Position numbers and translations under genes: made by a program. The notes under the pieces are model-generated. The model did no database searches and was not told where the DNA came from. It saw nothing but the letters and a program-made list of their open reading frames with translations. 64,000 bases of DNA from Candidatus Saccharimonadales bacterium (GTDB taxonomy: Bacteria; Patescibacteriota; Saccharimonadia; Saccharimonadales; SZUA-47), in the NCBI GenBank assembly GCA_041737385.1, contig JBGSRU010000002.1, positions 397,437 to 461,436 on the forward strand. The letters are read 5' to 3'. Below, piece after piece: positions 10,803 through 61,501 of this stretch. The first letter of the stretch is position 1, and every line of letters begins with the position of its first letter.

Positions 10803-11627
10803 CTAGTTAGTTGTGTTGCCGTTGTTTTGTGTTGTTGTTGTCGTGTTAGTGTCATTATCCTCAGTTGTATTTCCTGAGTTAGTTGTGTTGCCGTTGTTTG
10901 TATTAGTTGTTGGTGCGTTAGTTGTAGTAGTAGAATTACCAGAGTTCGTGGCTGTGGTGTTGCCGTTGTTTGTATTAGTTGTTGGTGCGTTAGTTGTCGT
11001 GGTGGTAGTAATGGTGGTGGGCGCATTTGTGTTACCACTGTTTCGGTTATCGGTATTACCACTGTTTCGGTTATCAACTCTTGTTGTAGCAGTTGAGTTA
11101 CCAGAATTTCGGTTGTCAGTATTACCACTGTTTCGGTTATCGGTATTAGTCATAGACATAGAGTTTCCGCTGAATCTACTGTCGGTGTTACCACTATTCC
11201 GGTTGTCAGTATTACCACTGTTTCTATTGTCGGTATTACCTTGGTTGCGATTGTCACTCGTCGTCGTGGTGGTGGTCGTGTTGGTAATAGTAGTATCGTT
11301 GTCTTCGTTTATTTGCATTGGCCCGTGTGGAAATACGCTTAGTACAGTGTACTTTTTGCCATTAAGTACAACTTCGCTGTTAACACCTAGTACTTGACCA
11401 GCTGTAGGTGTTGTTGGCTCGGTACACATACCTGCATTAGAACCTGATTCTGCCACAACATATTGTGGTGATGCAGTATTGCTTTGTTGCGCTGATGCGC
11501 TACTTCCATTTACTACCATGCTAGTTACAAAGTAGACCATTCCCATCATAAGCACCATCATAACGATCATGAAACCCATAACTTGGGCTGGTGAGAAATT
11601 TATATTATATTCGGCTTTAGCTGCCAT
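10803..11627 (-). CDS. membrane-anchored Thr/Asn-rich tandem-repeat envelope protein
   Basis: I place the start at 11627, where AAGGAGG lies 8 nt upstream. It has the signal-anchor 'VMGFMIVMMVLMMGMVYFVTSMVV', a small globular segment, about 9 copies of 'DNRNSGNT', and 'NAPTTNTNNGNTT' repeats. Confidence 0.6.
   Translation of the reverse strand: MAAKAEYNINFSPAQVMGFMIVMMVLMMGMVYFVTSMVVNGSSASAQQSNTASPQYVVAESGSNAGMCTEPTTPTAGQVLGVNSEVVLNGKKYTVLSVFPHGPMQINEDNDTTITNTTTTTTTSDNRNQGNTDNRNSGNTDNRNSGNTDSRFSGNSMSMTNTDNRNSGNTDNRNSGNSTATTRVDNRNSGNTDNRNSGNTNAPTTITTTTTTNAPTTNTNNGNTTATNSGNSTTTTNAPTTNTNNGNTTNSGNTTEDNDTNTTTTTQNNGNTTN
10813..11256 (-). repeat. nested coding tandem repeats (24-nt and 72-nt periods)
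   Basis: 24-nt units of GGTATTACCACTGTTTCGGTTATC span 11029-11256. The 41-nt block GTGTTGCCGTTGTTTGTATTAGTTGTTGGTGCGTTAGTTGT occurs at 10885-10925 and 10957-10997. Confidence 0.85.
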
Positions 11628-11743
11628 AGAGTAATCCTCCTTATATTGATAAGATGTCCCCTCACCGGATCTTTTTTGATCGTACGCCCATTTGATTGTG
11701 GTGTAAATCGATTTTATTAACCATGAGCAATTTAAAGCGAGGC

Positions 11744-11752
11744 TTATCCACA
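11744..11752 (+). promoter_or_regulatory. perfect DnaA-box consensus 9-mer TTATCCACA
   Basis: Exact match, in the divergent intergenic region between 11627 and 11878. Confidence 0.25.
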
Positions 11753-11877
11753 TATATTTTTCAGACTATGCAAGCTGAGCAAGCGTTAGCATCTTACGGT
11801 TGTAAAAACCACTCCACAGAATTTTATACATAGCCACATACCCGCCAAAATGCTAATCAGTGGTAAACTGTTAGCCA

Positions 11878-26993: not shown

Positions 26994-27015
26994 CTTTTCT
27001 TAAGAGCTTCTTTTC

Positions 27016-27255
27016 ATCACCCATTTGGCAACAAACGGGTGACGCCCAAACTGCCAGCCGTACTCAAAAACATGACTAACCGGATTGTTCAGTTCTCTGT
27101 TGCTGCGGAACGAACCTGTCCTCAGAGAGGCCAGAACCGTTTTTGGCTTTTTCCGTTAGTTATTTGCCAAAAAACGTCCTCGCAAATGACTCAGTGAACA
27201 AAACAAACCAGTCAATCAGTTCTGTGAGTTTTTATGGCTGGGAGCTCAGCTACAA
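27016..27255 (-). repeat. mosaic intergenic repeat, copy R1 (left arm of inverted pair)
   Basis: It is the reverse complement of 27927-28153 at roughly 80% identity by eye. The terminal hairpin is at 27017-27042. Confidence 0.85.
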
Positions 27256-27318
27256 GCCCGATGGCATCAAGAAGCTACTGCTTTTACTTCGTTGCTCACT
27301 GGGATATACTTCTTTATT

Positions 27319-27897
27319 ATGAGCTTACCAACACTAATTGACCACAATAATGAAATCGGAATAGAAGCAGGTGACAGAAGACCATACTTAGAACGCTATG
27401 TTGAAGCAAAGAATATCGAGCTAGCTGAAAAATTTGCAGATGGGAGTGTGGCTGTACGTCACACATTATCACCTGAATTAGCTCGTTTAGCATTTACGTT
27501 CGTAAAAGCTACGTTTAGACTTATAGACATCCAACAGAGCAATAGAGATGATAATGCGGACAGAGTCAAAGCCCAACAAGCAGATGTTGATGTTTGGACC
27601 AGCCGAGTTGACGCGGTAACAACTGGTTACGTGGCGTTTCACGAAACAATTGACTATTTTACTAGAAAAGCTTCGGATGCAAGGCTAGAAGACGATGAGG
27701 AAACACGACATAAAATACTAGGGCTGCAAAACAGAGCTGGAGAAATAGTTGTAGAAGCAGAACCAGACAGTCCGCTTTCTTGGACTATCCCAGACGTAAA
27801 TCCACCAAATTCGGTATTTGATCTACCTAAAAGCAAACAAGAATGGCACGTCAGAGAACGACACGTTCCACCTTCAAGTACAGATTCTACTATATAA
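27319..27897 (+). CDS. hypothetical protein enclosed by the ~230-bp inverted repeats
   Basis: 193 aa from the ATG at 27319 (the ORF track starts at TTG 27292). It is acidic and helical in flavour, with no SD and no motif I recognise. Confidence 0.45.
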   Translation: MSLPTLIDHNNEIGIEAGDRRPYLERYVEAKNIELAEKFADGSVAVRHTLSPELARLAFTFVKATFRLIDIQQSNRDDNADRVKAQQADVDVWTSRVDAVTTGYVAFHETIDYFTRKASDARLEDDEETRHKILGLQNRAGEIVVEAEPDSPLSWTIPDVNPPNSVFDLPKSKQEWHVRERHVPPSSTDSTI

Positions 27898-27926
27898 TTT
27901 GTACTAGTGTTGCTGAATGTAGCTAT

Positions 27927-28153
27927 CCCAGCCATAAAAACTCTAAAACTGATTAATAAGCCTCTCCGAGTTACCGAGTAGTTTGCGAGGCTTATTTTTG
28001 TAAGTAACTAAGAAAACAACAAAAATCTGATTCGCCGGTACTCGGCGAGTATGCTTCGAAGCAACGGTAACTCTGGGAGAGCTTGTTAGTCATGTTTTAG
28101 AGTTCCGGCTGGCGGTTTTGGGCATCACCCGTTTTGCCGTCAAAATGGGTGAT
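27927..28153 (+). repeat. mosaic intergenic repeat, copy R2 (right arm of inverted pair)
   Basis: Blocks CTCTAAAACTGAT (27951-27963), TAACTAA (28005-28011), CTTGTTAGTCATGTTTT (28082-28098) and CCGGCTGGCGGTTTTGGG (28105-28122), plus a hairpin at 28125-28152. Confidence 0.85.
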
Positions 28154-28430
28154 AAATTAAACACACAAACTTATAAATCTATTAAGTTAAGGATGATTTG
28201 TCACCTTTAAACGGAACTAACAGCGAAAAATAAACATAAGCATAATTTAATAGTGCAATATTTGTCACATTTCCACAATATGTACAGAGGGAAGGGTATG
28301 TTTCGTAGTAATATCTACATACATTCTATATGCATAAATAGCTATAAGCTGGTAAAATAAGACTATAAGAAAACAAATGTTGACTTTTAAAAACTTTTGT
28401 TTTAAAATAGACTTATTATAGAAAGAGCAG

Positions 28431-30163: not shown

Positions 30164-30381
30164 AGAGTTACATACAAAACTGAACGTTTTACGAACAATA
30201 CTAAGAATTATTATTTATACCTAAATATGTGAAAATAACGCTAATGTAGAAAAAAACAATAAAACTAGAGCGGAGCAGGTTAATAGAGGATTTTTTATAA
30301 AACATAAAAATATTTAGCAGAATTGAAGAAAAATTACTAGGCGAGAATAGCAGCAGAGGACAGAAAGCGAACATAGACATG

Positions 30382-30409
30382 ACGTCGCACAATGTATATT
30401 TTGCGACGT
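30382..30409. other. candidate dif (Xer recombination) site
   Basis: ACGTCGCACAA-TGTATA-TTTTGCGACGT. The two 11-nt arms are inverted repeats differing at 1 position, the 6-nt centre is identical to E. coli dif, and the whole site matches E. coli dif at 18 of 28 positions. Confidence 0.4.
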
Positions 30410-30589
30410 GCATATCTTATAAATAGTTGATTCCTTATACCACCCTAAATAGGGCACTTTTAAAGTAATGCCTGCTTTTCATAAAATTTTGATGTTACTG
30501 CCGTTGCTGCTACTTATTTCTAATCTTTATAGCTTCACCTATTAAACTTACAGGGCCAAGCAGTCGTAGTACTTTTTGCTACTTATAAG

Positions 30590-30598
30590 TTATCCACA
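30590..30598 (+). promoter_or_regulatory. perfect DnaA-box consensus 9-mer TTATCCACA
   Basis: Exact match in the 677-nt ORF-free gap. 8/9 variants lie at 30227-30235 (reverse) and 30622-30630. Confidence 0.25.
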
Positions 30599-30840
30599 CT
30601 TACATGCGTGAAATCACTTGCTTTTTCACGATTAAATATACTTGTATACTTTCTTCCCTGTTCACCCCTCCCTGCCGTTTGACAATATTTGACTTTTGTT
30701 TATTTATATATATAAGTATGTTTTTATATAATTTATGAACACTTTGCGAACTATAACAGGGTAAGAGCGGGTGAGCGGGCTTCCCTAACCAGCCAAAGAA
30801 ATATACGTCTCTTAAGCCTACTACTTATTTACGGAGGTCT

Positions 30841-40241: not shown

Positions 40242-41543
40242 TTATTTATGACTTAATTCAGCAATTCGCTCAGCATAATACTTAGCAGACGGTCTCACCG
40301 TTCGTTTCATCGTCTCTCTATCTACGTGCACTAAACCAAACTCCGGGAACCAACCATACGCCCATTCAAAGTTATCAAGGAGGCTCCAGTGGTAGTAACC
40401 TTTGAGCTCAATTCCTTCAGATAACGCACGCTCCATCGCGATTATCGTCTCTTCTATCCACCATTTACGCTGTTTGTCGTCAGCATCTGCTAAGCCGTTC
40501 TCAGTGATGATTATAGGTTTATTATAGTGTGCGTAGACTCTCACCAAAAGCGGATAGATTCCTTCTGGCTCCATATACCAGCCAAGATCACTCTTTGGCA
40601 GACCTGGGTTATCCTGATGGAACAACGTGTTTTTACGGCCTTTGTACTGCCTGAACGAATAATAATCAGTAAAGTAGTAGTTGAAGCCAACATAATCTTG
40701 ATATCTTTTGATTCGGTTCAAGAACCACCAGTTCCAAAAATAGCGCATCCACCTAACGGCGAGGTTATCCCAGAAATTCTGCGGGCGTTTTGCCTGTATG
40801 TTTGCTAATTGGGCTGCAACGCCAATTTGTAGGCTCTTTTTATGCTTTTTAAGGATTTTATATGAGCGCTTATGTGCAACTGATAGGTTGTAATATACCG
40901 TTATAAAAGAGAACCAGCTTTTTTTATTGGGTGGCCATTCCCCCGTTGCGTAGCCGAAGCTAGAATAGACGTTTGGTTCGTTCAGTGTGATGATGTACTT
41001 CAGCTTGTTTATAGGGAGCTCTTTACAGACTTTTGCGACAAAACGCTCAAAATACTTTATATTTGAGCGTTTTTCAAAGCCTCCCTTCTCAGTAAACCAG
41101 ACCGGCATTGTCCAGTGCCACAAGTTCAGCATCGGAACAATGTCTCGAGATAATAACTCTTCAATATATTCCTTGTAGTGAGCGAACGCCTCTGCATTCC
41201 ATACACCTTCTTCTGGTTCAAGTCGCGACCATTCTATTCCGAACCTGAAAGCGTTCAAATTCAGCTTCTCGGCGATATCAAAGTCGTGTTTGTAGTTTTC
41301 GTAGTGCCTTATACCTACTCCTGATAAGTAATTTTCAGGTGTCTCCGCTTGCGACTTAAACTTATCCCACTCTGGAAGCCAGTTTAACCGTTTATCTGCA
41401 GTTGCAGCTAATTCGCGCGCGTTTTCAAGTTCCCACACCGTCCATTGATTATAAGTGTTGCCTTCTACTTGATGCGAAGCGGTACTAGCGCCCCACATAA
41501 AATCCTTCGGGAATACGTTTTGTTCATTTATTTTTTTTGTCAT
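40242..41543 (-). CDS. glycoside hydrolase family 1 beta-glucosidase
   Basis: 'FMWGASTASHQVEG', the acid/base 'TLNEPNVY' and the nucleophile 'IIITENGLAD'. I place the start at M39 (41543) because the upstream extension lies inside a repeat copy. Confidence 0.9.
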   Translation of the reverse strand: MTKKINEQNVFPKDFMWGASTASHQVEGNTYNQWTVWELENARELAATADKRLNWLPEWDKFKSQAETPENYLSGVGIRHYENYKHDFDIAEKLNLNAFRFGIEWSRLEPEEGVWNAEAFAHYKEYIEELLSRDIVPMLNLWHWTMPVWFTEKGGFEKRSNIKYFERFVAKVCKELPINKLKYIITLNEPNVYSSFGYATGEWPPNKKSWFSFITVYYNLSVAHKRSYKILKKHKKSLQIGVAAQLANIQAKRPQNFWDNLAVRWMRYFWNWWFLNRIKRYQDYVGFNYYFTDYYSFRQYKGRKNTLFHQDNPGLPKSDLGWYMEPEGIYPLLVRVYAHYNKPIIITENGLADADDKQRKWWIEETIIAMERALSEGIELKGYYHWSLLDNFEWAYGWFPEFGLVHVDRETMKRTVRPSAKYYAERIAELSHK

Positions 41544-41584
41544 TATGTAGAGTTTACCAGAAATTATAGAAATTGTGGCTTTGC

Positions 41585-41750
41585 GCGCCACACCTCGCCA
41601 TACTTTTACCTGCAGGTGCAAAAGTATGCAAAACCCCCGCACCCGGCCGAAAAACATGATTGAAACAAGATACCAGACAGGCTTGCGCAGCGAGGACGCA
41701 AGCGACCTTCGGCTTATCTTCAGCTATTTGCCTTAGGTTGGCTCACTGCT
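41585..41750 (-). repeat. mosaic intergenic repeat, copy R3a (truncated)
   Basis: The reverse complement of 41585-41700 aligns with 47060-47170 of R4. Shared features are CTGGTAT..TTTCA.TCA.GTTT, GGGTGCGGGG(G)TTTT, and the hairpin TACTTTT..AAAAGTA at 41601-41626. Confidence 0.8.
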
Positions 41751-42072
41751 TGACTCAAGCCAGACTGATTTGCTTCATCAGTTTTTCAGAGGGTGAAAGG
41801 TTCAATCATGGATTGAAGCCCGTAGCTCCTGTAGCCCAATCCAGCATAAAACGCGAGAAACCAATGAAACAACTGCAAAACAAGTCGAGTCAATTGTGAG
41901 GACCAGGCAAAAGTACTTAATGGTAGAATCTACTTTTGCCCGACCAAAGGGAGTTCCGCAACAACGACCTGTTTTGCAGTTGTTTCAATTGTGTTTGTTG
42001 CGTCCGGGTGGTGGTTTTTGCCTCTCGTTTTTGGCAGCAAAAATGAGAGCCTTCTGTCGCACGGATGCGACA
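41751..42072 (+). repeat. mosaic intergenic repeat, copy R3b
   Basis: ACTGAT (41764-41769), a 10-bp stem (41906-41915 with 41931-41940), CGACCAAAGGGAGT, GTTCCGCAACAAC (41953-41965), TCCGGGTGGTGGTTTTTGC (42003-42021), and a hairpin at 42022-42049 with loop GGCAGC. Confidence 0.8.
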
Positions 42073-42091
42073 TCTTACTAATAAGTAGTCA

Positions 42092-42703
42092 TTATTTCTT
42101 AGATTTGGTTTGAGGTTTTTTCTTAGAATATCCTCTGTAAGCGAGCTCTTTACGTAACTCGTCTATACGAACGATGAAACTCTCAAACGGCTTCAATAGC
42201 GTCGAATAGCGCCAGTTCGGTGACATGATGTGTAATAATTTATTTCTATCCCTCAGATACTCAATCAATGAATAAAAATCACCATCACCAGAGACAATAA
42301 TTGCCTTAGAGTAATTAGGTAATTCTTTCATAGCGTACAGGACAAGATCAGTATCTATGTTGCCTTTTGTTGGGGGCTTTTCTTTATCGTCATCTTTTTC
42401 TTCAGCATTTGGATCGGCAAACATTTCTAACGTCGGTTTCAACGCGACAAGATAGCCTGCTTCTTGCATCTGTTTATAGAGGTCTTCGTTCTCCGGTAAA
42501 TAGCCAATAAACATGAAGGCTTTTTCAACGTTGTACTTCTCTTGCAGATAGATGCGAAACTTCTTCCAGTCGAGCTTCCACCCTGCCCGCTGCACACCTA
42601 GGTTCAGGTTCTGACTATCTATAAAAGCATAGTTACCTTTTGGTGCTTGCTGTTTCGGTTTACGGAACGGGAATAGCCGTTTTTTGTTTTGGTTTGTTGC
42701 CAT
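42092..42703 (-). CDS. NYN (LabA/DUF88-like) domain putative RNase
   Basis: 'YAFIDSQNLNLGVQRAGWKLDWKKFRIYL' and 'IIVSGDGDFYSLIEYL' are typical of NYN/LabA-like proteins. Confidence 0.7.
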   Translation of the reverse strand: MATNQNKKRLFPFRKPKQQAPKGNYAFIDSQNLNLGVQRAGWKLDWKKFRIYLQEKYNVEKAFMFIGYLPENEDLYKQMQEAGYLVALKPTLEMFADPNAEEKDDDKEKPPTKGNIDTDLVLYAMKELPNYSKAIIVSGDGDFYSLIEYLRDRNKLLHIMSPNWRYSTLLKPFESFIVRIDELRKELAYRGYSKKKPQTKSKK

Positions 42704-46153: not shown

Positions 46154-46930
46154 ATGAACAACAAAGAAACACTTTTAACTCAATTAAAGAAGTTAGGTTT
46201 GTCCGTCGATGAAGGCAAAATATATTTAGAACTTTTGAAAGAGCCAAATTCTCATCTAGAGTTAGCTAGGATAACTGGAGTAAATCGTACTAAGGTATAC
46301 CGAATTGCTGAAGAGCTACAGAAAAAAAGTCTAATAACTACCCGAACTGATGATAGAGGTACGTTTCTTATCGCAACTGACCCTTCTACCCTAGACGTCG
46401 AAATAGCCGAAAAGGAAGAAAAACTATCAAATCAAAGAGAAATATTCGCCAACATACTTCCAGAGCTAAATAAACTGCAGGCAGAAGGCCATAATGTTCC
46501 TGGCTACTTTGAAGTCAATACCTATGAGGGTGTCGATGGTATGAAACAAATGCTTTGGCACGAGCTAAAAACAAAGGGTGAAATGCTCGGGTTCGGTTCT
46601 GGGACGATCGCAGACTTAGTCGATAGTGAACGTCTTGCAGAGAGACATCGTGCAATGACTGTTAGTGCGGGATATAAAGTAAGGGAAATAATAAATCCCG
46701 GCAAAAAGCGTGAAGATTTTACAAAAAATGATGATTTCAAACAGATTTTTAATAAAAAAGTCATTCCTGAAGAAGATTTACTCTTAGAACAACAAATAAT
46801 CATTTATAACGATACTGTTGCTGTGTATAGCTGGCGCAATAATCAGCGTGTTGGGTACGAAGTAATAAATAAAGCATATAACACCATGTGGCGAAACATC
46901 TTTGAACATTATTGGCGTCTAGCTAAATAA
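46154..46930 (+). CDS. TrmB-family transcriptional regulator (paralog 1)
   Basis: N-terminal wHTH 'LKKLGLSVDEGKIYLELLKEPNSHLELARITGVNRTKVYRIAEEL'. I place the start at the ATG at 46154. Confidence 0.65.
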   Translation: MNNKETLLTQLKKLGLSVDEGKIYLELLKEPNSHLELARITGVNRTKVYRIAEELQKKSLITTRTDDRGTFLIATDPSTLDVEIAEKEEKLSNQREIFANILPELNKLQAEGHNVPGYFEVNTYEGVDGMKQMLWHELKTKGEMLGFGSGTIADLVDSERLAERHRAMTVSAGYKVREIINPGKKREDFTKNDDFKQIFNKKVIPEEDLLLEQQIIIYNDTVAVYSWRNNQRVGYEVINKAYNTMWRNIFEHYWRLAK

Positions 46931-46936
46931 ATAGTC

Positions 46937-47230
46937 GTAGCTCCTCCACCCTCTAAAGAACTGATGATAAGAATCAGCTTCTTCTGAGTAGAGCAACAAG
47001 ACTAATCTCCGAATACATAACTAAAGAACTATGAGGGGCGACCAAAGGGAGTCCTTGGTTGCGCAGAAGGAGCTGGTATTTCTTTTCAGTCACGTTTCTT
47101 TAGTGGGGTGCGGGGTTTTCGCTTACTTTTGCACCTGTAGGTAAAAGTAAGGCTGGGTATAGGCAGGCAGCTCCCATGATTTATTTTTTGGCAGCAAAAA
47201 TGAGAGTCGACCTTCGCTAGAATGCGACAA
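46937..47230 (+). repeat. mosaic intergenic repeat, copy R4 (longest, with duplicated E+F module)
   Basis: CTCTAAAGAACTGAT (46951-46965), TAACTAA (47018-47024), CGACCAAAGGGAGT, GGGGTGCGGGGTTTTCGC (47105-47122), hairpin 1 at 47124-47149, and hairpin 2 at 47179-47206 with loop GGCAGC. Confidence 0.85.
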
Positions 47231-47249
47231 AACAATTCCCCTATTTCAG

Positions 47250-60931: not shown

Positions 60932-61501
60932 CTACTTAATTATTCCAGCTTCTTTGGCTGCTAAGGCAAACGCCGTTATAGCTGAAGCTATACTAAAATC
61001 TAACCTTGATACTCTAGCGATATATAGAGTACTTGCTCTGCGTTCTTCCGTAGGAATATCTGGCGCTTGCTTCTCTACTGGTGGAGGTGTGGCTGTAACG
61101 TAATCATCAAAACGTTCTCTATGATCAACAATAGCATCCGTCACAGCTCTTCTTACTCCTAACACTTCAGGTGGTATTTTACCTTTGTCATTGTTTGCCC
61201 ATTCCCTGTCTGCAGCTTCCCTATCTTCCTCCAAGCAATGTACGCCTAAGTTAGGATCATTTAGAACTTCATCAAGTTTTCGTGTTGGATATTTTCTTGC
61301 TACCATTGCATCGAATTCTAATTGTCGGACAGATGTTTCTACTTCATCAACATAATCCTGTGGTAACGTAAAAAGCTGACCAAATCTATCTAGCCGACGC
61401 ACCGAAGCTTGTACTTCATCATCATGCTTATGGGGTAGCGTAAAATGCTCACCAAATCTATTTGGGTTTTGTGTTTCTAAGAGGCTTTCACTTGCTGACA
61501 T
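60932..61501 (-). CDS. hypothetical protein with internal 24-aa repeat
   Basis: 'NRFGEHFTLPHKHDDEVQASVRRL' is followed by 'DRFGQLFTLPQDYVDEVETSVRQL', with a C-terminal hydrophobic helix. Confidence 0.4.
   Translation of the reverse strand: MSASESLLETQNPNRFGEHFTLPHKHDDEVQASVRRLDRFGQLFTLPQDYVDEVETSVRQLEFDAMVARKYPTRKLDEVLNDPNLGVHCLEEDREAADREWANNDKGKIPPEVLGVRRAVTDAIVDHRERFDDYVTATPPPVEKQAPDIPTEERRASTLYIARVSRLDFSIASAITAFALAAKEAGIIK

Follow-up and report, generated by a model that had tools for sequence, protein, structure and literature searches.

What is the block of about 490 bp that lies directly upstream of the GH1 gene in a 64-kb stretch of Candidatus Saccharibacteria (TM7) chromosome, here called the window? 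It sits in the 548-nt spacer that runs from the NYN stop codon (42092) to the GH1 start codon (41543). A first-pass annotation had described it as one quasi-palindrome formed by two repeat arms, R3a and R3b, and had likened it to a miniature inverted-repeat transposable element (MITE) whose parent would be a second pair in the window, R1 and R2, with an open reading frame (ORF) between its arms. We find that the block is two diverged, oppositely oriented copies of one hairpin-forming repeat family. The best reading of these data, which we hold with slightly better than even confidence, is that R3a and R3b are separately derived members of a set of non-coding, non-autonomous structured interspersed repeats that colonise variable intergenic slots. 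Because the window carries housekeeping genes (dprA-topA, a mraZ-mraW-PBP-mraY-ftsW-murG cluster, tRNA synthetases and others), the setting is chromosomal DNA of a TM7 bacterium; the same sequence is also present on a 531-kb NCBI contig.

Two repeat units between NYN and GH1

Between 41572 and 42081, two related sequences lie in inverted orientation with almost nothing between them, as had been noted from the sequence. R3a (41574–41817, minus strand) and R3b (41800–42072, plus strand) meet head-to-head, and in the folds of the arms both heads share a small leader palindrome, TTCAATCatgGATTGAA (41801–41817), that marks the true junction at about 41800–41834. A leader similar to it, TTCAGTCCATGG, stands upstream of a solo copy of the family in L071, a contig from another assembly. 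The palindromic centre had been placed at GCTTGAcTCAAGC (41748–41760). That sequence is present, but it is a local palindrome within the 5' arm of R3a, about 55–70 nt away from the actual junction, and it overlies a YGAGTMR motif conserved in all family members. The proposal that the two arms share the divergent topology of R1 and R2, heads facing and tails outward, holds, and the same topology recurs in other assemblies, with an ORF separating the heads in L085 and none in L092.

The block does not behave as a single quasi-palindrome. In a fold of the whole block there is no arm-arm pairing, and each arm folds on itself. A repeat search found no long arm-arm inverted repeat in the region, only a 28-nt pair in its right half (41860–41887 with 41965–41992). 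The best arm-arm match by blastn is inverted and extends over 56 nt at 75%, with its symmetry point near 41824 and not 41754. Sensitive self-comparison instead linked both arms to a third copy in the window: 41582–41795 matches the reverse complement of 46947–47169 (66.5% over 224 nt, E 1e-19), and 42028–42072 matches 47185–47229 directly. A model-guided alignment puts R3a and R3b at 47% identity, no more than the family background; they belong to different subfamilies. R3a is closest to the copy at 46930–47238 (61% identity), while R3b is closest to a copy from another genome, L012c in contig L012 (59%). With identity this low, and with closer kin of each arm at other sites, we regard the pair as two subfamilies juxtaposed, and neither as an inverted duplication nor as a collapsed copy of R1/R2.

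A further reading would make the block a genuine long palindrome or cruciform in the DNA, such as a site of recombination or replication, or put the similarity down to chance. The inverted orientation of the arms and their 56-nt match favour it, but arms at family background that each fold on themselves do not fit it, and a strand-asymmetric fold would be needless for a double-stranded site. Chance is excluded by the folding z-scores, the independent profile matches and the covariation given below. Of all the readings weighed here, we consider this one the least credible.

The two arms share an architecture and differ in its details. Covariance-model scores were 184.9 bits for R3a and 212.4 bits for R3b, although both arms were training sequences for the model, which was trained on the copies in the window. 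Both were also matched by single-sequence nhmmer queries from other genomes that were never used in training (R3a by L086c, E 4.6e-7, and L005c, 9e-5; R3b by L005c, 4.7e-5, and L012c, 1.1e-4), and they are therefore bona fide members of the family. From its head outward on the minus strand, R3a consists of a long rod hairpin of 166 nt (41635–41800), which has the basal motif AAAACUGAUGA / CAAUCAUGUUUUU and includes 41748–41760, its limits following from minimum-free-energy domain boundaries and its pairs having the support of covariation over 16 copies; then, from the fold, a U-run and a second hairpin (41593–41633); and finally a third, terminator-like hairpin, TGTGGCGCGCAAAGCCACA, followed by ATTTCTATAA (41574–41592). 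The core of the second hairpin, TACTTTTGCACCTGCAGGTAAAAGTA (41601–41626), had been recognised before; it does exist, and it ends 58 nt before the GH1 ATG (41543), where about 55 nt had been given. Its type recurs in the 47-kb copy and in L005. The sense strand of R3a folds at −94.7 kcal/mol (z −4.8) compared with −77.0 (z −2.2) for the antisense strand.

R3b has a 188-nt rod (41834–42021, plus strand) with a near-perfect core at 41851–42003, seen in the inverted-repeat search, self-comparison and folds. A second hairpin, CTCTCGTTTTTGGCAGCAAAAATGAGAG (42022–42049; repeat search and fold), and a third, TGTCGCACGGATGCGACA (42055–42072), follow on the same strand, and the latter ends 20 nt from the NYN stop codon. 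The folding energy of R3b is −102.6 kcal/mol, with z-scores of −6.2 as RNA and −8.0 as single-stranded DNA (ssDNA). Such z-scores put the structure of both arms well beyond chance. The window sequence was also assembled independently from short reads (Logan contig L001, SRR28170464), and that contig stops at about 42020, the edge of the second hairpin of R3b; hairpin repeats of this type may fragment assemblies.

Two ORFs of 79 and 61 amino acids within the block had been judged unlikely to be genes. We agree, because the sequence evolves by compensatory base-pair changes and the other copies have no comparable ORFs. They should not be called as genes in annotation.

A repeat family folded on one strand

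Profile and covariance-model searches found five copies in the window: R3a, R3b, R1, R2 and a solo copy. R1 (26997–27275, minus strand) abuts the topA stop codon with its tail, and R2 (27905–28169, plus strand) stands head-to-head with it across ORF201. The solo copy (46930–47238, plus strand), which repeat search and self-comparison also recovered, fills the convergent spacer between TrmB and an 85-aa ORF and contains both types of second hairpin. Eleven further copies on Saccharibacteria contigs of other assemblies bring the total to 16; three are among GH1 loci (L005, with the same copy in L097; L012; L071) and the rest came from a motif scan of metagenome contigs (L083, two in L085, L086, L088 and three in L092). 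The GH1-locus part of the search covered 1.27 Mb and gave 3 matches. A single model, R1, was used throughout. A second, broader covariance model was dropped, as MAFFT misaligned the arms of 14 trimmed copies and RNAalifold then predicted no pairs, and the model-fitted alignment had too many columns.

Units are about 250–330 nt long and comprise a short leader, the rod, a U-run, a second hairpin and often a third. The rod is an imperfect hairpin of about 170–190 nt whose basal duplex, AAACUGAUKA / YARUCAUGUUU, hardly varies and includes a G.U pair and a bulged U. All copies have a run of GUUUUUG 3' of the rod. The second hairpin is built on YUUUUG-loop-CAAAAR, and within the window the TTTTG...CAAAA type of hairpin is exclusive to family copies; the small third hairpin is frequent and has a GNRA-like loop. 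Sequence identity is modest around this shared plan: R1 and R2 are 67% identical, and R1 or R2 compared with the R3 arms 42–50%.

The structure itself is far better conserved than the sequence. In the 16-copy alignment, which was fitted to the covariance model so that pair counts lean towards structure, 87.4% of cells hold standard pairs, compared with 63.4% when partners were shuffled and 42–50% when they were slid. Double-sided, compensatory changes occur in 44 of the 53 pairs, and the covariation score is 0.585 against 0.195, a level reached by none of 500 shuffles. Paired positions hold 92 G.U combinations and 19 A.C, an excess which argues that one strand folds, and three pairs are predominantly wobble, at 8–12 of the 16 copies. 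Folds made independently of the alignment agree: in 14 of 16 copies it is the sense strand that folds more stably, and it has 123 G.U pairs against 63. These comparisons show that compensatory changes preserve the structure and that it is a property of one strand. As modelled, the element's working form is a folded RNA or ssDNA strand and not a palindromic duplex.

The repeat family is previously undescribed: we found no Rfam family, annotated record or paper that covers it. Rfam gave no match at the gathering threshold over the whole window, and at E ≤ 10 across 41400–42200 only matches far below threshold, mostly to microRNA precursor hairpins. ARAGORN reported no tRNA or transfer-messenger RNA. 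The region had no match in phage and plasmid collections by megablast or blastn; in viral contigs a strict motif pattern matched nowhere, and the 16 matches to a looser pattern, none of them confirmed by the model, are due to chance. In the literature searched there was no description of such repeats in Saccharibacteria or other bacteria of the Candidate Phyla Radiation (CPR).

Copies are confined to intergenic spacers and take any orientation relative to adjacent genes. Eight tails face the stop codon of a convergent gene and eight the start of a co-directional gene, and the heads follow no rule. Such unconstrained orientation is easier to reconcile with an interspersed repeat than with a dedicated leader or terminator. 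All four pairs observed (R1/R2, R3a/R3b and those in L085 and L092) are head-to-head. ORFs lie between the heads of R1/R2 (ORF201) and of the L085 pair (an unrelated 218-aa ORF), and none between those of R3 or of the L092 pair, which stands between divergent genes. Half of the copies (8 of 16) are solo and half are paired. On the strand opposite to the L012 copy, upstream of its head (L012:5460–5520), GTGTAGCTCTGTAGCAAACCAGCATAAAGG resembles the first 30 nt or so of R3b, a possible truncated remnant of a second arm in head-to-head position.

Some copies are very similar at separate sites. L086 and L088, from separate loci of a single metagenome, are 100% identical over a 200-nt core and about 80% identical in the flanks, and the copies of L092 and of L085 are likewise near-identical. 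In four copies on SDBT01 contigs the basal 30 nt and the second hairpin are identical, and the apical rod differs yet stays paired. The mosaic look of the copies suggests recombination among them. Copies also occupy non-orthologous sites in genomes whose GH1 proteins are 62–81% identical.

The strand specificity of the fold, its conserved G.U pairs and its persistence in copies no more than 42–67% identical would also suit RNA genes. In this account, the main rival to insertion, the units would be genes for rod-like small RNAs that form a multi-copy family and serve the cell or its defence, each with a conserved basal 'handle' and a variable apical duplex; head-to-head pairs would be divergently transcribed gene pairs, spread by ordinary duplication and recombination. 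The SDBT01 copies, with their identical basal 30 nt and differing but paired apical parts, fit it, as do the U-run that follows the rod and the terminator-like third hairpin of R3a. Against it, a scan and the aligned leaders revealed no conserved promoter at a fixed distance upstream of the heads, and pairs with no spacer would need each promoter to lie inside the partner unit. No copy is orthologously placed in two genomes, most of the Saccharibacteria loci searched lack the family (the 3 matches in 1.27 Mb), and Rfam holds no match. We take this explanation seriously but think it doubtful.

Occupancy of variable spacers

We compared the NYN-GH1 junction across relatives of the GH1 protein. 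The best 80 are all on metagenome-assembled contigs, and nearly all are named Candidatus Saccharibacteria, Saccharimonadales or Saccharimonadia; the remainder are about 10 labelled only 'bacterium' or Patescibacteria, and one Candidatus Binatia. NYN followed by GH1 is a conserved order in 57 of the genomes fetched, with spacers ranging from a 19-nt overlap to 9.2 kb, 16 of them of 106 nt or less. Not one of these 57 spacers holds a copy of the family. The closest relatives, with GH1 85% identical, have the order NYN-DUF1761-GH1, and those with GH1 at 81–82% have a 41-nt spacer or overlapping NYN and GH1 genes. This is the presence/absence comparison that the first-pass annotation had proposed, and it bears out that the block is not a fixed leader: absent from the junctions of relatives, it is specific to this lineage, in a slot whose content varies.

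The gene found at this position in the closest relatives encodes a 141-aa DUF1761 membrane protein (L094:2353–2778 and L095:1146–1571), and DUF1761 is also present in the NYN-GH1 spacers of L004, L007, L008 and L010. No DUF1761 remnant was found between or around the R3 arms, and the gene is absent from all 64 kb of the window. In L009 the same slot (2040–2225) holds a rod of about 190 nt with AAAACAGATTGAA/TTCAATCTGTTTT, which is unrelated at the level of the model and is possibly a distant cousin of the family.

Does the block nevertheless supply or replace the 5' region of GH1, as had been suggested? An alignment of nine GH1 upstream regions points the other way. An extended −10 box, (C)TGnTACAAT, lies 7–12 nt before the ATG in seven of the nine, and in the window CTGGTAAACT (41551–41560, minus strand) aligns with it. 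Both CTGGTAAACT and a TATAAT at 41563–41568 are downstream of the last hairpin of R3a, outside the repeat. Since this predicted box is retained there, the element does not appear to supply or replace the GH1 leader, and in annotation GH1 should be given its own predicted promoter next to the ATG. At most, the R3 pair may insulate NYN and GH1 from one another, and GH1 from upstream transcription, given that the third hairpin of R3a, followed by AUUUCUAUAA, was the only terminator-like site that the scan reported. Across the family, the features of an intrinsic terminator, in which a U-tract directly follows a G+C-rich stem, are mixed: GUUUUUG follows the rod in every copy, but the second hairpin has no U-tail, and some copies lie between divergent genes (L092).

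A cis-acting role in the local operon, whether as a GH1 leader or riboswitch or as a bidirectional terminator of NYN and GH1, would accord with the position of R3a on the GH1 strand directly upstream of the gene, with the tail hairpins of R3b beginning 20 nt after the NYN stop codon, and with the terminator-like hairpin. It is at odds with the absence of the block from 57/57 orthologous junctions and from the closest relatives, the presence of the same family at unrelated loci in every orientation, the predicted −10 box downstream of R3a and the lack of an Rfam match. We therefore view such a role as very unlikely. A cis-regulatory leader or riboswitch of GH1 had been among our candidates and was rejected on two of these grounds, the lack of conservation at the 57 orthologous junctions and the predicted −10 box between R3a and the ATG.

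A second conserved junction shows the same kind of variation. In seven related contigs the topA-sigma spacer is 207–557 nt long, includes about 210 nt of conserved sequence upstream of the sigma gene and holds no family copy. In the window it is 1437 nt, and the extra DNA is R1-ORF201-R2. Comparison with L100 shows that an imperfect, A-rich 9-nt repeat of the topA end (AAGAAATAA / GAAAAATAA) flanks this segment, and as a putative target-site duplication it is weak evidence. In L102 and L104 the same spacer contains another long hairpin that is unrelated at the level of the model; in L102 an AT-rich hairpin of about 75 nt follows topA. The conserved stretch of about 210 nt upstream of the sigma-r4/HARE-HTH gene (28215–28430, aligned with L100–L105) is itself of interest. 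It includes TTGACT-17 nt-TACAAT and an TATCCACAAT(A/T)TGT element and is a candidate regulatory region.

These comparisons also bear on the idea that R3 relates to R1/R2 as a MITE relates to its parent element. At 42–50% identity, the R3 arms are not derived from R1 or R2. ORF201 (27292–27897, plus strand) is an ORFan with no Pfam domain; its sole match among 5.8e9 proteins is itself, and we found no relatives in genome contigs or viral contigs. The predicted protein is all-helical at low confidence, its AlphaFold single-sequence model (predicted local distance difference test score, pLDDT, 43) is too poor for searching, and it is unrelated to the 218-aa ORF between the L085 arms. As a candidate transposase or parent gene, ORF201 was rejected for its lack of a Pfam domain and of homologues.

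A modified form of the same idea treats the head-to-head pair as the real mobile unit, a cassette carrier that brackets variable cargo, with R3 as an empty carrier or the remnant left after loss of a gene such as DUF1761. The topology recurs with cargo (R1-ORF201-R2 and the L085 arms around their 218-aa ORF) and without (R3 and L092); ORF201 is an ORFan, the whole R1-ORF201-R2 segment is missing in relatives and has the imperfect 9-nt flanking duplication; and the closest relatives have the DUF1761 gene exactly where R3 has none. But the arms of a pair are not sisters, the R3 arms being at 47% and each closer to a copy elsewhere. The two cargo ORFs share no relationship and are not recombinase-like, half of all copies are solo, nothing of DUF1761 was found between the R3 arms, relatives have no arms around the cargo in this slot, and the putative duplication is A-rich and imperfect. 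We judge this account quite improbable. It is tempting to speculate on a more ambitious version, in which the units would be the folded, strand-specific ends of a new CPR mobile system: head-to-head arms of about 250 nt would bring ORFan cargo, since lost in some cases, to conserved intergenic slots, moved by an enzyme that reads the structure of single-stranded DNA or RNA and not its sequence, and R3 would be an empty carrier at the DUF1761 site of its relatives. This too seems improbable to us.

The reading we prefer remains that of separately derived interspersed repeats. In its favour, copies are present or absent at conserved syntenic junctions (NYN-GH1 and topA-sigma), and near-identical copies occur at different loci. 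Units would spread by a copy-and-insert process, in which the folded single-stranded form, ssDNA or RNA, would be recognised by an enzyme encoded elsewhere. Variable spacers such as NYN-GH1 would be preferred as landing slots, and heads would tend to land beside heads. The R3 pair would then lie between the NYN stop codon and the predicted promoter that belongs to GH1, filling a slot that is empty or occupied by a DUF1761 gene in the closest relatives. The nearest analogies of mechanism would be REP/REPIN-RAYT, ssDNA recognition of the IS200/IS605 type, or an RNA intermediate.

Several points weigh against this reading. The window copies are old (42–67% identity) yet well paired, and instead of having been inserted recently from conserved master copies, each could have a host function and be under selection where it stands. 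A scan of about 60 window ORFs revealed no transposase, and no reverse transcriptase or integrase was found in the ORFs of the 64-kb window; no mobilising partner enzyme was identified. R3 has no clear target-site duplication or terminal inverted repeat. The pair counts carry the lean towards structure described above, and the related DNA searched for the family amounts to only about 1.6 Mb.

Apart from the repeat family, the window has other features of note. A dif-like site, ACGTCGCACAATGTATATTTTGCGACGT, at 30381–30410 has 11-nt inverted arms around TGTATA and lies in a gene-free, AT-rich spacer (30164–30840). It coincides with a switch of gene orientation, from plus (2.8–30.1 kb) to minus (30.8–64 kb), and with a downturn of cumulative GC skew, from which we infer that the region is probably the replication terminus. 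A lone DnaA-box 9-mer, TTATCCACA, is found at 30590–30598, where chance expectation is about 0.5. The third hairpin of R3b (GTCGCACGGATGCGAC, 42056–42071) has the same 7+6-nt arms as the dif-like site (30384–30407), a post-hoc observation that may be chance. These two are the only GTCGCA...TGCGAC hairpins in the window, and the third hairpins of other copies differ. A dif/Xer link to the family was accordingly rejected, R3b alone sharing arms with the site at 30.4 kb. Tandem repeats of 72, 66 and 24 nt (10805–11268) lie inside an ORF with no Pfam match (10803–11753, minus strand), and a 72-nt tandem duplication (61317–61460) lies inside another (60932–61501, minus strand); these repeats point to repetitive proteins.

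Comparison with known systems

Saccharibacteria genomes are tiny and gene-dense, and repeats and mobile DNA in them are scarce and poorly described. To our knowledge, the phylum has almost no characterised non-coding elements. Covariation such as that seen here, in a multi-copy family, would mean either a new non-autonomous mobile element or a new class of structured RNA. The family marks slots whose gene content varies between relatives, at NYN-GH1 and topA-sigma, and its covariance model is now a concrete tool for CPR genomes.

Among recombination sites, the pdif modules of Acinetobacter plasmids and integron attC sites offer a likeness to the pairs that enclose an ORF. In these systems variable, often ORFan genes are bracketed by recombination sites, which are inverted in pdif modules, and attC sites are conserved in their folded single-strand structure and not in sequence. 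However, pdif sites are 28-bp Xer sites, and attC sites are 57–141 nt long and lie in a single orientation beside an integrase, whereas the family arms are 250–330 nt long with no integrase nearby. Neighbouring ORFs encode no reverse transcriptase or integrase domains and orientations are mixed, which sets the family apart from both retron non-coding RNAs and attC sites.

The single-strand origins (sso) of rolling-circle plasmids and the Frpo/ssi single-stranded promoters of conjugative plasmids come close in form. They are strand-specific imperfect rods of about 200–300 nt that conserve structure and short motifs, and they work only as folded ssDNA. Unlike the family, they are on plasmids or phages and keep one orientation to the transferred or displaced strand; the family copies are chromosomal, among housekeeping genes, and in both orientations.

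ERIC/IRU and Correia (CREE/NEMIS) elements and bacterial MITEs are, like the family, scattered intergenic imperfect palindromes in either orientation that are variably present. They are 100–300 bp long, are transcribed within neighbouring mRNAs and can carry terminators or promoters. Short, non-coding, multi-copy and variably present also describes the family (five copies in 64 kb, none at 57 related junctions, near-identical copies elsewhere). MITEs, however, are defined by terminal inverted repeats, target-site duplications and a transposase parent. We found neither the first nor the last of these and no recognisable target-site duplication at R3, the imperfect 9-nt repeat around R1-ORF201-R2 being a putative one. 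The single units are asymmetric, with a rod and then tail hairpins, a strand-specific fold and conserved G.U pairs, and the two R3 arms are 47% identical. No transposase-encoding relative emerged either, ORF201 being an ORFan, the L085 ORF unrelated and the window scan negative for transposases.

The REP/BIME/REPIN elements of Proteobacteria are mobilised by RAYT, an HUH Y1 transposase. They too are intergenic, non-coding and hairpin-forming, often stand as inverted pairs, form mosaics of small hairpins and keep their pairing by compensatory change. Their recognition is thought to be single-stranded, and they can act as terminators or RNA stabilisers. REP palindromes have a conserved 5' GTAG-type head. 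They differ in that a REP is about 20–40 nt and a REPIN about 100 nt, compared with a rod of about 170–190 nt plus an asymmetric tail in units of 250–330 nt; there is no sequence relation, the host here is a CPR bacterium, and no RAYT gene was found among the ORFs scanned in these 64 kb of the genome. In kind, then, the repeats of this window resemble REP/BIME, ERIC, Correia and MITE elements, and they are set apart by their size, with a rod of about 170–190 nt and tail hairpins, by their asymmetry and strand-specific fold, and by the phylum of their host.

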